This document shows positions 26,848 through 56,737 of a stretch of DNA of 56,976 nucleotides, piece by piece (position 1 is the stretch's first letter; every line of letters starts with the position of its first letter). The position numbers and the translations under genes are program-made. The notes beneath the pieces were generated by a model, which was not told where the DNA came from, ran no database searches, and was given only the letters and a program-made list of their open reading frames with translations. The stretch spans positions 1 through 56,976 of the IMG/VR virus record IMGVR_UViG_3300042556_002360, one strand, 5' to 3'. This DNA comes from a virus. Lineage: Duplodnaviria; Caudoviricetes.

Positions 26848-27645
26848 ATGAAAGAAAAATCGACAATACCTATTAATCAAGAAGAAATCGCGGGATACCT
26901 TAAAGACATTAGAAAACTAAAAGTAATGACTCCTGAAAGGGAGAAAGAATTGGCAGAAAGAATGCTTTCTGAGACAATCACCGAAGAAGAAAAAAAAGAA
27001 ATACAAAAAGAATTATTGGAGGGTAATCTTCGTTTTGTGATTACCGTTAGTAAGCAATATCAGAATCAAGGGTTGGATTTGCCTGACTTGATTGCTGAAG
27101 GTAATTATGGTTTAATGAAAGCCATTGAGAACTTTGATTGGTCTAAACGATTGAGATTTATATCATATGCCGTATGGTGGGTCAGACAATCAATCCTTCA
27201 ATCACTGAATGAAAACGCAAGAACCATTCGACTTCCCGTTAATGTTGTTCAAGAATTACACAGAGCAAAAAAAGATATGGATACTACAGGGTCTGAACTT
27301 CCCGACAAATTCGCATCTTTACCATATACAATTAAGATTGATGAACCATTAAATGAAGATGGAGACACTTTATTGGATGTTTTAAGTAATCCAAATGCAG
27401 AATCTGCAGATGCTAACTTATCAAGTGAGGAAACACTTAAGGGTAAGTTGTTGGATATGTTAAATATATTAGATAATCGTGAACGAGTGATTATTGAAGA
27501 TTATTTTGGTCTTTCAGGTAATACAAGGACATTGGAAGATATCGGTGGGGACTTCTCATTAACAAAAGAAAGGGTCCGTCAAATTAAAGAAAAAGCGTTA
27601 CGGAAACTTAGAAACGAAACAGGTACTTTGTTTGATTACCAATAA
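26848..27645 (+). CDS. rpoD: RNA polymerase sigma70 factor (RpoD/SigA-like, no region 1.1)
   Basis: NLRFVI, DLIAEGNYGLMKA, RFISYAVWWVRQSI, RTIRLP, LTKERVRQIKEKALRKLR. Confidence 0.92.
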   Translation: MKEKSTIPINQEEIAGYLKDIRKLKVMTPEREKELAERMLSETITEEEKKEIQKELLEGNLRFVITVSKQYQNQGLDLPDLIAEGNYGLMKAIENFDWSKRLRFISYAVWWVRQSILQSLNENARTIRLPVNVVQELHRAKKDMDTTGSELPDKFASLPYTIKIDEPLNEDGDTLLDVLSNPNAESADANLSSEETLKGKLLDMLNILDNRERVIIEDYFGLSGNTRTLEDIGGDFSLTKERVRQIKEKALRKLRNETGTLFDYQ

Positions 27646-42360: not shown

Positions 42361-43026
42361 ATGAGCATAAAAAAAGGTAAGATTTATAAAATAACTAATA
42401 AAGAAAATGGTTTAATTTATATTGGATGTACAATTAATTCATTGGAGAAGAGGTTTTATGAACATTTATATAGGTGTTTTAAAACTGATTATAAATCCAA
42501 ACTATATAACTCTATTAAAAAATATGGTGTAGATAATTTCATAATAGAGTTAATTGAAGAATGTGATTTAAACGTAATTTATGAAACTGAAAAAAAATAC
42601 ATAAAAGAATTAGATAGTTATCATAATGGATTAAATTCTACATTTGGGGGTGAAGGATGTTTAGGGTATGTTCATTCTTCGGAAATGAAGATTAAAATAT
42701 CTGAAGCAATTAAAAATGGTAACTCTCATAAAGGTAAAACGTATGAAGAGTTATATACTGATAATGCGGAATATGAAAAAGAAAAACGAAGACTATCGGT
42801 TAAAAAAAGTTGGAACGAGATTAGTGATGATAAAAAAAATAAAAGAGTTATTAATATGCGAAATGCCGTTCGTAAAAACTCAAAATATAGTGAAGATTTA
42901 ATTAAAGAAATTAAAGAAAAATTAAAAAGTGGAATAAAAATTAAAGAACTTTCAAAAGATTACCCACAGATGAGTTATAACTATTTATATTCAATAAGGA
43001 ATGGAGATAGATGGGGTGATTTATAA
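42361..43026 (+). CDS. GIY-YIG homing endonuclease
   Basis: KIYKITN..IYIGCT..RFYEH..E..GLN. Confidence 0.85.
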   Translation: MSIKKGKIYKITNKENGLIYIGCTINSLEKRFYEHLYRCFKTDYKSKLYNSIKKYGVDNFIIELIEECDLNVIYETEKKYIKELDSYHNGLNSTFGGEGCLGYVHSSEMKIKISEAIKNGNSHKGKTYEELYTDNAEYEKEKRRLSVKKSWNEISDDKKNKRVINMRNAVRKNSKYSEDLIKEIKEKLKSGIKIKELSKDYPQMSYNYLYSIRNGDRWGDL

Positions 43027-46561: not shown

Positions 46562-47149
46562 TTAGTTTATTAGTTTAAATTCGTGTTTATAGCAAGTTTT
46601 TCTTATGGTACCCTTGTAACCATTATTTACTTTTTTACCTCTTAATGATAATGATAATTTTTGCCTAACGTTTCTTGGGTTTCCATTTGAATACCCATTT
46701 TCAATTAAGTAATTTGCACCATCAACTAAAGTGTTAAAAATGAATTCTTCACCAGTTTCAATATTAATCAACATAAAATTATTAATATTTCCATTTTTGG
46801 TTAAATTGTATTTGGATAGTTTGGTTTTAACTACATCATTGAATGTGTTTCTTCTGAATTCGTTAACGATTGCTAAATTATATCCCTTGTCTAACTTATT
46901 TGATTCATATTTTAAGATTAATTCATTCTCTTTATTAATTAACTCATTTATCTCACAGTATTCAATAACCTCAAATATAAAATTATCTTTACCGTATTTG
47001 TTATATGATTTTTGTAAATATTGGTTATCGTGTATTCCTTTATCTAACATCCAAAAATGTTTATATTCTCTACTGATAATATTTACACTACTACCAATAT
47101 AAAGTTTATTATTCTTAGTGTTAGTTATTTTATAGATACCACAATTCAT
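46562..47149 (-). CDS. GIY-YIG homing endonuclease
   Basis: GIYKITN..LYIGSS..REYKH..E..GYN. Confidence 0.85.
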   Translation of the reverse strand: MNCGIYKITNTKNNKLYIGSSVNIISREYKHFWMLDKGIHDNQYLQKSYNKYGKDNFIFEVIEYCEINELINKENELILKYESNKLDKGYNLAIVNEFRRNTFNDVVKTKLSKYNLTKNGNINNFMLINIETGEEFIFNTLVDGANYLIENGYSNGNPRNVRQKLSLSLRGKKVNNGYKGTIRKTCYKHEFKLIN

Positions 47150-52053: not shown

Positions 52054-52917
52054 ATGAAGAATTTAGAAAACATTATCAATACAATAATTAATGGAGATTC
52101 AGTTGAAGTAATGAAAGAAATGCCAAATTCTTTTGTTGATTTGGTTGTAACTAGTCCAAAATATAATGTGGGTATTGATTATGATAGTTGTGATGATAGA
52201 ATGTCCATGGAGGATTATTGGTGTTGGACTAAAGAATGGTTAACAGAGGCTTTTAATGTTTTAAAAGATGATGGTAGAATCGCAGTTAACATTCCTTATG
52301 AGGTGAATGTACAAGACAGAGGTGGTAGAGTTTTATTTATGTCTGAGTTTTGGTCAGTTATGAAATCTGTTGGGTTCCAATTCTACGGGTTGGTTGACCT
52401 TGATGAAAACTCACCACACAGAAGTAAGACCACGGCTTGGGGTTCTTGGATGAGTCCATCAAGTCCTTACATTTACAACCCAAAAGAATGTGTCATCTTG
52501 GCTTACAAGAAAGACAGAATCAAAAAGGTTAAAGGTCAACCACAATGGAAGGCTGAGATTGTAGATGTGGAACAGGAAGATGGAACGATAAAGACCAAAG
52601 CTGTTTATCAAGAAGAAGATAAGAAAGAATTTATGTCTTTGGTTTACGGACAATGGGAATATTTTGCGGACACCAAACAACAAACCAAAGCAACATTCTC
52701 GATGGATATTCCAAGTAAAGCAATTAAGATTCTTACATACAAGAATGATATTATTCTTGACCCATTCGCTGGTAGTGGAACTAGTTTGGTTGCTGCAGAA
52801 ACGTTAGGACGCAGATGGATTGGTGTTGAGTTAAGTGAAAACTATAGTAAAGTTGCAAAAGAACGAGTCCAACATTTTGTCGATTTAAATAAACAAACAA
52901 AAATAGATTTTAAGTAA
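52054..52917 (+). CDS. DNA N4-cytosine/N6-adenine methyltransferase (beta class)
   Basis: DLVVTSPKYN followed by ILDPFAGSGT. Confidence 0.88.
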   Translation: MKNLENIINTIINGDSVEVMKEMPNSFVDLVVTSPKYNVGIDYDSCDDRMSMEDYWCWTKEWLTEAFNVLKDDGRIAVNIPYEVNVQDRGGRVLFMSEFWSVMKSVGFQFYGLVDLDENSPHRSKTTAWGSWMSPSSPYIYNPKECVILAYKKDRIKKVKGQPQWKAEIVDVEQEDGTIKTKAVYQEEDKKEFMSLVYGQWEYFADTKQQTKATFSMDIPSKAIKILTYKNDIILDPFAGSGTSLVAAETLGRRWIGVELSENYSKVAKERVQHFVDLNKQTKIDFK

Positions 52918-52945
52918 AAGGGTTTCACAACCCTTTTTTTGTTTT
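52917..52945 (+). terminator. Intrinsic terminator
   Basis: AAAAGGGTT..AACCCTTTT followed by a T run. Confidence 0.7.
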
Positions 52946-52968
52946 ATGGATATTTATATTAAAAAACA

Positions 52969-53337
52969 ATGGCAAAGAAAATTGTAAAATTAACGGAAAC
53001 AGATTTAATAAACATAGTTAAAAGAGTTATTTCGGAGGGCGGAAAACCAACAGGTAAATTATATTTTGCTCACGATGATAGTATCACACAATTACAGGCT
53101 ATTATTGGAACCGATGGTTATTTATATCCCTATGGTGAATCACTTGATACTTGGAAAGTAGGACCGATTGCAAAAGTTCCGTATACAGGTGACGTTATTG
53201 TTAAAATAGATAAAAGGGGAGGTAAAGAAGAGATTTGGGTTGGAAAGAATTTTAATAATCTCGGTAAGTTAGAGATGGCTCCAAACTATACAGTAAAAAC
53301 TGTAAACCACAATACTATTCCTAGACCTAAGAAATAA
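52969..53337 (+). CDS. Hypothetical protein with N-terminal KLTETDLINIVKRVISE motif
   Basis: TATTTAT at 52951. Confidence 0.75.
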   Translation: MAKKIVKLTETDLINIVKRVISEGGKPTGKLYFAHDDSITQLQAIIGTDGYLYPYGESLDTWKVGPIAKVPYTGDVIVKIDKRGGKEEIWVGKNFNNLGKLEMAPNYTVKTVNHNTIPRPKK

Positions 53338-53347
53338 ATTATTTAAT

Positions 53348-53695
53348 TTAGAATAGGTACTCAACGGTATCACCAGCCTCAATGCCTAAATTTTCACAGG
53401 AATTACCTGCCAACTCTAATACAATATTCCCGTTACCGCAGTAACTACCACAATTATCTCCTTGACACGGAGGACAATTATGGTGAATATTAACGATTAC
53501 ATTATTTTTGATTATTATAATATCCAAATTTTGAATACAATTTTTCATCCAAAAACACTGCTTATTTCCACCCATTAAAAACAATAAACCATTGAAAGTT
53601 TCATCAAACTTTTTACCCATCATACCAATATATTTTGATTTTTCATCAACGAGAGTTTTGACATTAAAGACATTTTGATTGATTTTAACTTTCAT
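53348..53695 (-). CDS. DUF192-family protein
   Basis: GMM..GLLF..FWMKN..LDIII..VLEL..GIEAGD. Confidence 0.8.
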   Translation of the reverse strand: MKVKINQNVFNVKTLVDEKSKYIGMMGKKFDETFNGLLFLMGGNKQCFWMKNCIQNLDIIIIKNNVIVNIHHNCPPCQGDNCGSYCGNGNIVLELAGNSCENLGIEAGDTVEYLF

Positions 53696-53824
53696 TATCT
53701 ATAAATATAATGATATTATGAACTTTTTTATAAAAAAATAATAAAAAAGTTTGACTTTTGGTAATTTGTGTTATATTTATAGTTTCTTGTCCTTAAAAGA
53801 CAAAAAAACACACCCCACCATAAA

Positions 53825-54376
53825 GTTTTACAAAATAAATTTGACTAAATGAGAATTTGGTTGTACCTTTGTAAAACAATTGAGATGAACGTCTCAAAAA
53901 ACCTAAGACGAGAGTCTTAAAAAAAATGTCCCACAGATTTGACTATTTGAAAAAATATGATTAAGTTTGTGGGACTTAATCTGAAAGTTCTTAAAAATAT
54001 TAATACATCGCAAGTTAGAGTAGAGGACAAACTCATTGGGCTCATAACCCAAGGTTCCGCAAGGGACACGTCAGGTTCGAATCCTGCACTTGCAACAAAT
54101 CGGAGCACGATAAGATGATATATAAGGAGTGCTTAACCCATACACTGATAACTTCAGCTATAAGGTTTCCAGCGAGTCATCTTAAAAAAAAAACTTCACA
54201 AAAAGTTTGACAAATCAAAAAGTTTGTATTACCTTTGTGAAACAATTAAGGAGAACAGTAAAAATGTACCTGAAGTAAGACGAAGTAATTCGTAATAACC
54301 AAAAGGTTTGTAATCCTGAAAAAAAAGTTTACAAAAAAGTTTGACAAATTGAAAAGTTTATCTTACCTTTGTAGAC
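53825..54376 (+). promoter_or_regulatory. Four tandem sigmaA-type promoters (TTTGAC-N18-TAnnTTTG), each enclosed by an inverted repeat
   Basis: TTTGAC at 53840, 53938, 54206, 54340 and TAnnTTTG at 53864, 53962, 54230, 54364. Confidence 0.8.
54009..54095 (+). tRNA. tRNA-Met(CAT), initiator type, with long variable arm
   Basis: Acceptor CGCAAGT/ACTTGCA (C1:A72), D stem GAGT/ACTC, anticodon arm TTGGG-CTCATAA-CCCAA, T loop TTCGAAT; CCA not encoded. Confidence 0.88.
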
Positions 54377-54437
54377 CAATCAAGAAAAGGTTAACGTTGT
54401 TGTAAAACTATGGTTCCCTTTTCTCAAATTGAAAATT

Positions 54438-54448
54438 CGTTCTTTGAA
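54438..54448 (+). promoter_or_regulatory. boxA-like antitermination element
   Basis: CGTTCTTTGAA following a hairpin, directly before the large RNA; similar AGTTCTTAAAAA at ~53986 before the tRNA. Confidence 0.5.
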
Positions 54449-54449
54449 T

Positions 54450-55352
54450 ATAAGATATTTATCCATTCAACGGATAGTAACCCCACAAAACTCTTAGGAG
54501 TCTCCAAGGTTAACTTGATGTTGATAAAGTAAATCGGCCGTATATGGTCGTTAAATAAACCACGAAAGTGGGATAAAGTGAATCTGTTGTGTTAACAGGT
54601 TTGCGGTTTGTAAAGTCTTAGGACCTTATGAACTCAAGTATACAAGCGAGATATCATCTTTGCTTTAGTAACCGAGGGTAACACTGTAGGAGAAGAGTTG
54701 AGGTGACCAAGCGATGTGGGTCGTTTGGTTGAGGTGGGAACACCAATAAGAATAACTCGTAGGAACTCTGTAAGAACTGTAACTTCCAATTACACAATTG
54801 CGGCTTCCAATACGATAGTGGACTTAAAACCGAAAGGTATGATTTTGTACAGGTGGTGCTGTTATTATCCCTACTTTGAATCTACCAAGGTTCATCGTTT
54901 GAAGTAAACTTGGCATATGGAGATGGGGACATTTCAAGGAGTAGTTTAGTATTCTGTTGTTCAAAAGATAACGGAGCTTAAGGTGGACCACTACTTCTAA
55001 CATCCACGACACAAAACTTAATATTACACTGTTAATGTAAAAATTAATTAAAAAATAATAAGCAAAAGTGTCCATCAGGTTTTGATGAAAGTTGCCTACA
55101 CAGTCACGGGTTGTCCGTGGCACGAGAGAACCGCAAGTTTAATCGTATTTTTACCAAAGACCTCTAAGGAGTCGAATCCTGAGTCAGTTCGCAAGATTGA
55201 AGAGAGTTGAGTAATAAAAGAGTAGTTGAAACCTCAAGGAGTGATTGGTCTAACCAATCGGCAATGAGTGGTATTCCTCAAAAGGGAATGGATACGAGGG
55301 GAACCCATAATACCTCAAAAGTCACTTACAAAAACTTGTAATCTCAGAGTTT
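54450..55352 (+). ncRNA. Large (~900 nt) structured non-coding RNA, possibly GOLLD-like; ends approximate
   Basis: No credible ORF, raised GC, many stems with G-U pairs and GNRA loops; bounded by promoters and a terminator; adjacent to a tRNA. Confidence 0.7.
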
Positions 55353-55373
55353 TTTAGCCAACTATGAAAAACT

Positions 55374-55410
55374 AAATTCCCCGCCCCTAAAAAGGTGGGG
55401 TTTTTTATTT
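55374..55410 (+). terminator. Intrinsic terminator closing the RNA locus
   Basis: TCCCGCC..GGTGGGG stem followed by TTTTTTATTT. Confidence 0.7.
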
Positions 55411-55428
55411 TATAGTATATTTATAACT

Positions 55429-55701
55429 ATGAGACGAACCTTACTTGAAGATATTGAAAGAATGAATCAAATATCAAGATACATAATCCCAAAAACAATT
55501 GAACGTGATTATGATGATATGGATGATATGAGAAATCATCCTCCGAAGAAATTAAAGTATAGGGGAGTTACCTTTGAAAAAGATTGGTTGGGATTGTATT
55601 CATTTGATGGGTATATGACAAATAAACTAGGAAATATGTATGACTTTATTGATAAGAAAATAGAGGAAAATCCTGACCTTGTAGATTCGGACGAAGATTA
55701 A
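55429..55701 (+). CDS. Hypothetical protein
   Basis: TATTTAT at 55418; LLEDIERMNQISRY N-terminal motif. Confidence 0.7.
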   Translation: MRRTLLEDIERMNQISRYIIPKTIERDYDDMDDMRNHPPKKLKYRGVTFEKDWLGLYSFDGYMTNKLGNMYDFIDKKIEENPDLVDSDED

Positions 55702-55732
55702 TAGTTATTTTAATATATTTATAAATAATACT

Positions 55733-56737
55733 ATGAAACAAACAATATATGAGGAAATTTTAAGATTCAATCTCCTTTCAAAATATGATAATTCAAAAAC
55801 CTTAACTGAACAAGCAGGTCAACCATTTGTAAAATTCCCGTGTGTTTCAAAACACCCTGGTGCTAAGGAAACTAAACTTGCTGATGGTACATCGGCATAT
55901 CTAATTAATGGTGTCTATTATTATGGTGGTGGTAGAAAAAAATTGGCTGACGGGACTATGGCGAACTATACTTGTAACGACCCTGAATTTGGTCTTCCTA
56001 ATTTTCCGTGTGTTTCAAAACACCCTGGAGCTAAACCATCTTTACGTTCTGATGGGACTTTAGAGTTTATTATAAATGGTGTTACTTATTATGGTAATGG
56101 TAGAAAAATGTTGGCTGATGGAACGATGACTAACTATACTTGTAAAAGTGCAGAATTTAAAACATGGACTGATTTTCCATGTGTTGCAAAACACCCTAAA
56201 GCGAAAGAAACTAAACTTGCTGATGGTACATCTGCATATGAAATCAATGGCGTTTTTTATTATGGGGGAGGTAGAAAAAAATTGGCTGACGGGACTATGG
56301 CGAACTATACTTGTAACGACCCTGAATTTAAAACAAAGGTGGCAGTAAAACCAGTTGCAACCCCAACTGAATTGAAAGATATTACGGGAATTAAAAAATT
56401 CCAAGATTGGTTAGACACCAATGCTGTGGGATGGGCAACAGGGTATAAGGACGGTATTATTAATAAAGGTCAAAATGGTGGAGGATACGGTTCTTTTGGA
56501 AAAAGAACTCAAAAAGCTTGGGCAACGTATAAAACCAAATATCTTGAAACTCCTGCGGCCACAACATCAGGCACTACAACATCAGGTGTTACAACACCTG
56601 CAACTACAACACCTGCAGCTACAACACCTGATACTACATCACAACAAGGTAACATACCAAAATATGGTCAAACCTATATGGGGAATGACCAAGTAGTTTA
56701 TAATTGGAATGGGACTGAATATGTTGCAGAAAGGTAA
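55733..56737 (+). CDS. Protein with three ~55-aa Cys-flanked repeats, a peptidoglycan-binding-like domain and a Thr-rich linker
   Basis: FPCV.KHP..YYG.GRK.LADGTM.NYTC x3; FQDWLD..GSFGKRTQKAW. Confidence 0.75.
   Translation: MKQTIYEEILRFNLLSKYDNSKTLTEQAGQPFVKFPCVSKHPGAKETKLADGTSAYLINGVYYYGGGRKKLADGTMANYTCNDPEFGLPNFPCVSKHPGAKPSLRSDGTLEFIINGVTYYGNGRKMLADGTMTNYTCKSAEFKTWTDFPCVAKHPKAKETKLADGTSAYEINGVFYYGGGRKKLADGTMANYTCNDPEFKTKVAVKPVATPTELKDITGIKKFQDWLDTNAVGWATGYKDGIINKGQNGGGYGSFGKRTQKAWATYKTKYLETPAATTSGTTTSGVTTPATTTPAATTPDTTSQQGNIPKYGQTYMGNDQVVYNWNGTEYVAER

Follow-up and report, generated by a model that had tools for sequence, protein, structure and literature searches.

GOLLD RNAs (Rfam RF02032) are among the large structured RNAs found in phages, and cage structures of family members, including the env-38 tetradecamer and the Streptococcus agalactiae dodecamer, have been solved by cryo-electron microscopy (cryo-EM) since 2024-25. 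According to the published accounts, the solved members assemble without protein into cages of 10 to 14 subunits, the family combines a universally conserved 3′ region with a less conserved 5′ region (the portion of Rfam length being the 3′ domain), env-38 lies downstream of a Met-tRNA, and the function of the family is still unknown. In this work we analysed a 1.7-kilobase (kb) locus at positions 53740-55410 of a viral DNA of 56,976 base pairs (bp), IMG/VR record IMGVR_UViG_3300042556_002360; this whole stretch is called the window below. An earlier note on the same DNA had described the locus as built like a ribosomal RNA (rRNA) operon and driving a structured RNA of ~900 nucleotides (nt), which it took to be related to GOLLD or else to represent a giant RNA class of a new kind; all elements listed there were located at or close to the positions given. 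We found that the RNA is a GOLLD of ~830 nt, and that the DNA upstream of it carries Bacteroidota-type promoter motifs, a hairpin and a putative boxA, an arrangement that recurs in related phage loci and whose boxA-like motif matches that of Bacteroidota rRNA operon leaders.

Other described systems resemble parts of the locus. The leader of bacterial rRNA (rrn) operons contains tandem promoters (P1/P2) and boxB-boxA-boxC elements, and works with a complex of NusA, NusB, NusE, NusG, SuhB and S4. In one account, boxB-boxA-boxC follows P2 and has a second occurrence ahead of 23S, and the rrn antitermination complex is reported to need boxA and to form on boxA alone (PMC10250234). The locus shares with these operons the tandem promoter motifs placed after A tracts, a hairpin followed by a boxA-like motif, a tRNA in the same unit, and a product that is large, untranslated and structured; it differs in that the product is not rRNA, the unit is encoded by a phage, and Nus recruitment is predicted from the letters of the DNA. 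The nut sites of phage lambda (boxA and boxB, acting with the phage N protein) offer the parallel of a phage boxA that recruits host Nus factors, as predicted here. In contrast to lambda, the hairpin precedes boxA in the window, as in rrn operons, no N-like protein was identified in the window, and the target is a noncoding RNA instead of delayed-early genes. ROOL RNAs are likewise large cage-forming RNAs of phages and prophages near tRNA islands, but they are unrelated to the window RNA in sequence and fold.

A full-length GOLLD RNA

The GOLLD model of Rfam matched 54937-55350 over its entire length (model positions 1-416 of 416) with 321 bits against a cut-off of 150 (E 1e-92), the A/T-rich linker being aligned to an unpaired stretch of the model. 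Over the interval 53600-55500 only GOLLD and tRNA were matched at E<=1, and introns, RNase P, transfer-messenger RNA (tmRNA), ROOL and OLE were all without a match. A blastn search of the 3′ domain against plasmids gave zero matches. The half of the earlier proposal that named GOLLD is borne out by this full-length match, and the other half, a new giant RNA class, was rejected on the same ground.

Homologous loci were collected by scanning viral contigs with one conserved GOLLD 14-mer, which yielded 117 loci. The 3′ GOLLD domain was present in 32 of the 117 fetched loci, and 20 of these also matched window positions 54520-54936 in nhmmer searches; the 85 loci without an nhmmer match were set aside as likely chance occurrences, as judged by nhmmer alone. 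After removal of duplicates, alignment A1 set the window beside 14 loci from viral contigs and two from huge phages in GenBank. The 5′ side was tested on its own, because GOLLD is described as a conserved 3′ region joined to a less conserved 5′ region; the corresponding alignment A2 holds 17 sequences, nhmmer having found the 5′ domain in the window and in 16 other unique phage loci. Eight of the homologous loci were checked with Rfam and scored as GOLLD at 275-314 bits. The closest relative, locus L012, is 82% identical to the window across GOLLD.

RNAalifold folded A2 into 101 pairs in 20 helices, 58 of the pairs with compensatory changes. In the pair count, 96.4% of the cells were paired, vs 38-41% when the partners were slid by 1-3 columns, and double-change pairs numbered 58 vs 14-19 for the slid partners; none of 500 shuffles matched any of the observed measures. 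The stems that had been picked out by eye in the earlier note are all real. CCAC-GAAA-GTGG, GTGAATCTG/CAGGTTTGC and GACCAAGCGAT/GTCGTTTGGTT belong to covarying helices of the 5′ half, and GTCACGG/CCGTGGC and GATTGG/CCAATC are pairs within the Rfam GOLLD model.

We also weighed whether the ~900 nt could be an RNA class unrelated to GOLLD after all, or could encode small proteins in the open reading frames (ORFs) at 54716-54907 (+) and 54824-55123 (−). The Rfam model spans only the 3′ 414 nt, and both ORFs are open in the window. Against this stand the full-length match, the two-domain build that the GOLLD literature gives for the family, and the behaviour of the two frames, which are the longest in the locus (63 amino acids (aa) on the + strand and 99 aa on the − strand). 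The 99-aa frame is broken by 2-11 in-frame stops in 16/16 homologues. Stops interrupt the 63-aa frame in 9/16, a change of length shifts it in another 5, and it is intact only in L012. Substitutions per codon position are flat (0.258/0.319/0.274 and 0.313/0.310/0.284 for the two frames), and the comparison with homologues gave no third-codon-position bias in either frame. As far as the data go, protein coding at the locus would be excluded, in line with the remark in the earlier note that the 1.7 kb holds no credible ORF, and we regard an unrelated RNA class or a coding function here as scarcely credible.

We concluded that the ~830-nt RNA (about 54522-55350, somewhat shorter than first proposed) is a member of the GOLLD family, which we consider practically certain. 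It resembles the described members in its full-model 3′ domain, structured 5′ domain and A/T-rich linker, in its phage setting beside a tRNA(CAU) and in its lake-water habitat, and no feature of the RNA itself falls outside the family. By analogy with the solved relatives, the window RNA may assemble into a cage. GOLLD being a known family in which this RNA is ordinary, the value of the locus lies in its leader and in the comparison that follows.

A boxA-like leader motif shared with Bacteroidota rRNA operons

The motif GTTCTTTGAA is present once in the 57-kb window, in the leader of the GOLLD gene. The order of promoter motif, short hairpin and CGTTCTTTGAAAA recurs upstream of the GOLLD core in alignment A1; GTTCTTTGAA is exact in 15 of the 17 GOLLD loci and has one mismatch in L040, and a hairpin stands directly 5′ of the motif in 15/16 leaders, with stem sequences that differ from locus to locus. 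The motif follows the promoter start by 58-59 nt in 6 cassettes and by 99 nt in the window, where the hairpin is longer; its distance to the core of the 5′ domain ranges from 59 to 117 nt. On inspection of the leader nothing obvious was seen that would correspond to a boxC or to a leader-trailer helix, and no search beyond inspection was made.

The same motif was found in front of Bacteroidota rRNA genes. We fetched 121 Bacteroidota 16S loci with a group-specific probe. Among the 59 loci with a leader of at least 400 nt, GTTCTTTGAA was exact in 16 and within one mismatch in 35. The 49 loci with 1 kb of upstream DNA gave 29 (21 + 8) sense matches within 200 nt before 16S vs 0 antisense matches, and 0-6 sense matches per 100 nt further upstream. 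In the sampled genomes the motif lies ~80-200 nt upstream of 16S; the estimated 16S starts were confirmed by Rfam in 5/5 loci, where the motif is at -118 to -170. Several Bacteroidia-type leaders read AACGTTCTTTGAAAATA, identical letter for letter to the GOLLD-leader consensus, and Flavobacteriaceae leaders mostly read GTTCATTGAA. A variant, GTTCTTTGACATATTG, occurs in the 16S-23S spacer of 12/55 loci and lies ~70 nt before 23S in L143, the locus that was checked. The motif of the GOLLD leaders equals the boxA of sampled Bacteroidota rRNA leaders.

A copy in the leader, another in the spacer, and a hairpin before boxA make up the textbook layout of rrn antitermination signals. The assignment of 54438-54448 as a boxA is well supported by sequence comparison, because the leader and spacer copies and the hairpin-then-boxA order match these signals, and the site is probably functional. 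Compared with the boxA consensus GYTCTTTAANA of gamma-proteobacteria, as given in PMC5725501, GTTCTTTGAA is different at one position. The earlier note had listed two boxA-like sites. The second is the one described here and has held up; the first, GTTCTTAAAA, is degenerate, although its GTTCTT core is kept in L012, its distances from P3 and from the tRNA fit, and its placement resembles that of the boxA copies ~20 nt before tRNAs in the huge phage LR756501 (see below).

Motif cassettes outside GOLLD leaders

Exact-motif counts over the whole genomes of three huge phages are near those of a reversed-pattern control (5 vs 4, 6 vs 8 and 12 vs 8), so that only local clusters are informative. At the GOLLD locus of LR745206 there are two motif copies, one of them between tRNA(CAU) and GOLLD, like a spacer boxA. 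LR756501, a 735-kb phage, has four exact GTTCTTTGAA copies within 3.5 kb (L247, 185500-191500, − strand) on the strand of an 11-tRNA array, and one copy, GTTCTTTGAAGTATTGAAAT, lies 20 nt ahead of the tRNA that opens a run. Another copy in this cluster has, 5 nt behind it, a tRNA-like sequence without an ARAGORN call. The Rfam GOLLD search of LR756501 gave no match, but the controls were silent too, so absence of GOLLD from this phage is not shown. Extra promoter-hairpin-boxA cassettes occur in L031, L057 and L003, at 200-480 nt from the GOLLD cassette on its upstream side. One in L003 stands before a tRNA-like gene of 88 nt whose anticodon loop is unusual, and the segment between the cassettes in L031 and L057 has no Rfam family match. 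The copies at a tRNA array and at non-GOLLD segments indicate that the cassette belongs to stable-RNA transcription and not to the GOLLD fold.

These distributions bear on a different role for GTTCTTTGAA, in which the motif would act within the GOLLD transcript itself instead of loading Nus factors, for example by directing processing, by making a tertiary contact or one between subunits, or by mimicking the rRNA leader towards the ribosome. Such a role would fit the invariance of the motif at 59-117 nt from the conserved GOLLD core, and a ribosome pull-down with GOLLD is mentioned by Kretsch et al.; given a contig with adapter letters joined at ~54533, the leader may or may not belong to the stable RNA. 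However, the motif keeps a set distance from the promoter (58-59 nt) while its distance from the GOLLD core varies, the same cassette stands upstream of non-GOLLD segments in L031, L057 and L003, copies occur at tRNA arrays of LR756501, where the GOLLD search gave no match, and the motif coincides with a host rRNA leader element in its sequence as well as in having a spacer copy. We consider a role in the mature RNA unlikely, chiefly because the cassette goes with stable-RNA transcription beyond GOLLD, and favor the reading of GTTCTTTGAA as a boxA.

About ten rows of a published ROOL alignment (PMC12286853, supplementary file 2) begin with what appears to be the 3′ part of a boxA: UCUUUGAAAA, UUCUUUGACAA or CUUUGAAAU. 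ROOL genes may have the same kind of leader, to judge from these row starts.

Promoter motifs and terminator

The Bacteroidetes primary sigma factor recognizes a consensus of TTTG at -33 and TAnnTTTG at -7 (PMC7366714), and four sites of the locus (P2-P5, Table 1) fit this consensus at the usual spacing. The pattern TTTG-N19-21-TAnnTTTG has 12 matches in the window vs 2.6 +/- 1.5 in 100 dinucleotide shuffles, and the + strand matches at 53840, 53938, 54206 and 54340 are the sole sites of TTTGAC form in the 57 kb. A scan for sigma-70 promoters was at chance (10 sites vs 10.1 in shuffles) and uninformative. The stacked promoters of the earlier note can be described more closely as four strong and one weak promoter motif on the + strand, of the Bacteroidota type and not of the sigma-70 type, with presumed promoter activity. 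A P5 equivalent is visible in most rows of alignment A1.

It could be argued that the TTTGAC...TAnnTTTG units are inactive, being copies of a spacer module or sites bound by a regulator of the phage, and that one distant promoter reads the locus. In favor of this, P4 and P5 are duplicates of ~83% identity, and the phage has a sigma factor of its own. Inactive units would hardly explain the four matches to a 12-base split consensus that lie on one strand within 530 bp, with no other strict match in 57 kb, nor the A tract that precedes each of the five sites. All five positions are kept in L012, and P4 and P5 also in L245, despite drift of the DNA between them, and the TAnnTTTG element is also found upstream of the motif in sampled Bacteroidota rRNA leaders. 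We judge inactivity of the units improbable and take them as likely promoters of the tRNA and the GOLLD gene.

The terminator that had been proposed at the end of the locus is present, with a hairpin at 55379-55400 and a T run behind it. Because this hairpin is the sole terminator-like site, RNAs begun at the upstream promoters probably extend through the tRNA into GOLLD.

Table 1. Features of the GOLLD locus in window coordinates.
Feature	Position	Strand	Basis and remarks
P1, weak promoter-like site (TTTGAC, 18-nt gap, TATATTTA) after A tract	53750-53779	+	Misses TTTG-N19-21-TAnnTTTG; position kept in L012
P2, Bacteroidota-type promoter motif (TTTGAC...TACCTTTG)	53840-53871	+	Pattern match; kept in L012
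Hairpin TTGAGA-TGAACG-TCTCAA after P2	53880-53897	+	Kept in L012
P3, Bacteroidota-type promoter motif (TTTGAC...TAAGTTTG), upstream of tRNA	53938-53969	+	Pattern match; kept in L012
Degenerate boxA-like GTTCTTAAAA	53987-53996	+	Loose pattern only; 49 nt after P3 start, 13 nt before tRNA
Initiator-like tRNA(CAU), 88 nt	54009-54096	+	ARAGORN; Rfam tRNA 43.3 bits
Extra variable-arm hairpin GTTCC-GCAA-GGGAC, 14 nt	54054-54067	+	Absent in L012; GNRA loop kept in L245 and L004
tRNA trailer, H-type pseudoknot (AGCAC/GTGCT; TAAGATGA/TCATCTTA)	54104-54184	+	Read from sequence
P4, Bacteroidota-type promoter motif (TTTGAC...TACCTTTG)	54206-54237	+	Pattern match; nearly identical in L012 and L245
P5, Bacteroidota-type promoter motif opening the GOLLD leader	54340-54371	+	Pattern match; kept in L012 and L245
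Leader hairpin AGAAAAGG...CCTTTTCT, boxB-like in position	54383-54424	+	RNAfold
boxA-like motif CGTTCTTTGAA	54438-54448	+	Unique in window; same motif before Bacteroidota 16S
GOLLD 5′ domain, ~20 covarying helices	54522-54936	+	nhmmer, RNAalifold
GOLLD 3′ domain	54937-55350	+	Rfam RF02032; includes A/T-rich variable linker ~55000-55065
Intrinsic terminator CCCCGCC-loop-GGTGGGG, then T run	55379-55410 (hairpin 55379-55400)	+	Terminator scan; kept in L012

The initiator-like tRNA and its trailer

Bacterial initiator tRNAs are marked by the anticodon CAU, a mismatch at 1:72, A11:U24 and three G:C pairs at 29-31:39-41, and normally have short (class I) variable loops. The tRNA(CAU) of the locus, called an initiator in the earlier note, carries the C1xA72 mismatch, A73, A11:U24 and the three G:C pairs (GGG/CCC) beside the anticodon loop. 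It differs from bacterial initiator tRNA(fMet) in a 14-nt extra arm with a GNRA tetraloop, and with this insertion in place of a short variable loop it is an atypical form of an initiator, as identified by its identity marks. L012 carries the same tRNA at normal length, without the arm. A pattern scan for the long form detected four viral contigs, three from a single phage and the fourth from a 76% relative (L245) with the arm GTCCT-GTGA-AGGGC; the tRNA of LR756501 (L004, 2508-2598) has the arm ATGGCTT-GTGA-AAGTCAT. The three versions of the arm have three different stems, every one of them capped by a GNRA loop.

In the window the tRNA(CAU) lies 425 nt upstream of the GOLLD 5′ domain. A tRNA(CAU) was present in the fetched DNA of 13/28 unique GOLLD loci, upstream of GOLLD in three and 12-20 nt after its 3′ end in ten, in a count that, for ten of the 28, could reach no further than ~165 nt downstream. 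At least 8 of these 13 tRNAs have the 1:72 mismatch, as read by eye.

Both stems of the pseudoknot proposed for the tRNA trailer are present (54104-54108/54129-54133 and 54111-54118/54177-54184). They are kept in L245 by way of three compensatory pairs, and the element is absent from L012. The trailer matched no Rfam family at E<=1.

Other small RNA genes were seen beside GOLLD in related loci. In a 304-kb viral contig (L081) a tmRNA gene (2561-2963, − strand; Rfam, 118 bits) lies ~400 nt from the GOLLD gene. In L002, from the 642-kb phage LR756502, Glu-like tRNA copies stand on both sides of GOLLD (1268-1384 and 2330-2403), the upstream copy with an insertion of ~45 nt.

RNA libraries

Metatranscriptome contigs from 4/4 runs, belonging to 4 studies (freshwater, wetland, sediment), cover 54496-55300 at 85-100% likeness, and nearly identical pieces are among them, e.g., 150 nt with 2 differences in run X20. 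The support from RNA libraries is weak, because it consists of contigs only, in which relatives are summed and DNA carry-over is possible. We read the contigs as indicating that GOLLDs of the window's subfamily turn up in RNA libraries and nothing beyond. The four runs had no contigs on 52900-53355 or 55408-56300 and very low cover on 54382-54495, which is not readable as silence. One contig of run X21 has sequencing-adapter letters and GGG joined at ~54533, the start of the conserved 5′ domain; an RNA might end there, but only one record shows this.

Source phage

The IMG/VR record has a GC content of 32.7% and a CheckV completeness of 19%. PHROGs matches in the window include a primase, an SbcCD-like nuclease, an exonuclease, a sigma factor, homing endonucleases and methyltransferases, and from this gene content we concluded that the window is a fragment of a large phage. 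When the whole locus was compared by blastn with 50,697 phage genomes, the similar records were four assemblies named 'uncultured phage' only, of 634-735 kb. Lake-water metagenome runs contain near-identical DNA; 18 rows had at least half of the sampled words, one of them possibly being the source sample and many possibly coming from one campaign.

The 1.7-kb interval is bounded by a 115-aa ORF on the − strand (end 53695) and a 90-aa ORF on the + strand (start 55429). L012 has an extra ORF of ~400 nt with a Nudix-box-like motif between the upstream gene and P1, and the window has none there. Elsewhere in the window, the RNA polymerase sigma factor is encoded at 26848-27642 (+) (phrog_351, E 6e-51), and a stretch of 5 kb holds two genes for GIY-YIG-type homing endonucleases, at 42361-43023 (+) and 46562-47146 (−). 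A 334-aa ORF at 55733-56737 (+), without a PHROG match, contains three tandem repeats of ~55 aa (FPCVSKHPGAK...DGT...NYTC) and a Thr/Pro-rich tail.

Discussion

We propose that, in a jumbo phage of a Bacteroidota host, the tRNA and GOLLD are transcribed as one unit in the style of an rRNA operon, to which Nus factors of the host are recruited, a reading to which we assign a probability of roughly 0.7. Host RNA polymerase would start at the stacked promoters, P1-P3 ahead of tRNA(CAU) and P4-P5 ahead of GOLLD, and transcripts from the upstream set would also read on into GOLLD. The boxA motif of the nascent RNA would bind host NusB-S10 and load the other Nus factors, by which the polymerase would be turned into its ribosomal antitermination form, resistant to Rho and perhaps of help in folding. 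In this way ~1 kb of untranslated and heavily structured RNA could be finished without Rho-dependent or hairpin-induced termination, at high yield. The leader might be trimmed afterwards, and the finished RNA would assemble into a cage like those of the solved relatives. The rRNA-operon-like build and host antitermination that the earlier note had put forward from one sequence can now be argued from a motif in 15/17 GOLLD loci that is also present before 16S and, as a variant, before 23S in sampled Bacteroidota genomes.

Several points weigh against this proposal. The leader motif was not found in L002 (LR756502), the only such locus among the 17, and the upstream site GTTCTTAAAA is a degenerate relative of boxA whose function is doubtful and on which we do not rely. 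The motif being invariant, covariation cannot separate a protein-binding leader element from a part of the mature RNA. The 16S sample, taken with a Bacteroidota-specific probe, speaks for the presence of the motif in this phylum and not for phylum specificity. The boxA of Firmicutes is nearly the same as GTTCTTTGAA. To our knowledge, the ribosomal antitermination complex has not been characterised in Bacteroidota. Because the phage encodes its own sigma factor, part of the promoter activity may be independent of the host. The host is very probably a member of the Bacteroidota, a call that rests mainly on the promoter type, because the probe was phylum-specific and the motif is not shown to be so.

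The literature searched contained no link of GOLLD to boxA, antitermination, NusB or Rho (Weinberg 2009 and Morgado 2020 lay outside the search), and a promoter-hairpin-boxA leader, Bacteroidota-type signals and an initiator identity of the neighbouring tRNA were not found in the GOLLD literature covered. The words leader, upstream, Nus and initiator are all absent from the GOLLD cryo-EM paper in Nature.

A wider idea, which we put forward as a long shot, is that Bacteroidota jumbo phages handle cage-forming GOLLDs and tRNA arrays like additional 'ribosomal' RNAs. A boxA of the host type would load the antitermination and chaperone complex for co-transcriptional synthesis and folding, and the cage together with the phage initiator tRNA, whose GNRA-capped arm would perhaps dock on GOLLD, would redirect translation initiation in infection.

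For the family, the comparison suggests that a whole GOLLD subfamily has the wiring of an rRNA operon, namely strong promoters in tandem, a hairpin, the boxA of host rRNA leaders and an adjacent initiator tRNA. The cluster at the tRNA array of LR756501 suggests that huge phages may generally equip their stable-RNA units with a host-type boxA. For RNAs whose cages are solved, this offers three new handles: the likely host phylum of GOLLDs from lakes, a dependence of RNA synthesis on Nus factors and Rho that can be put to the test, and a repeated link to translation initiation.

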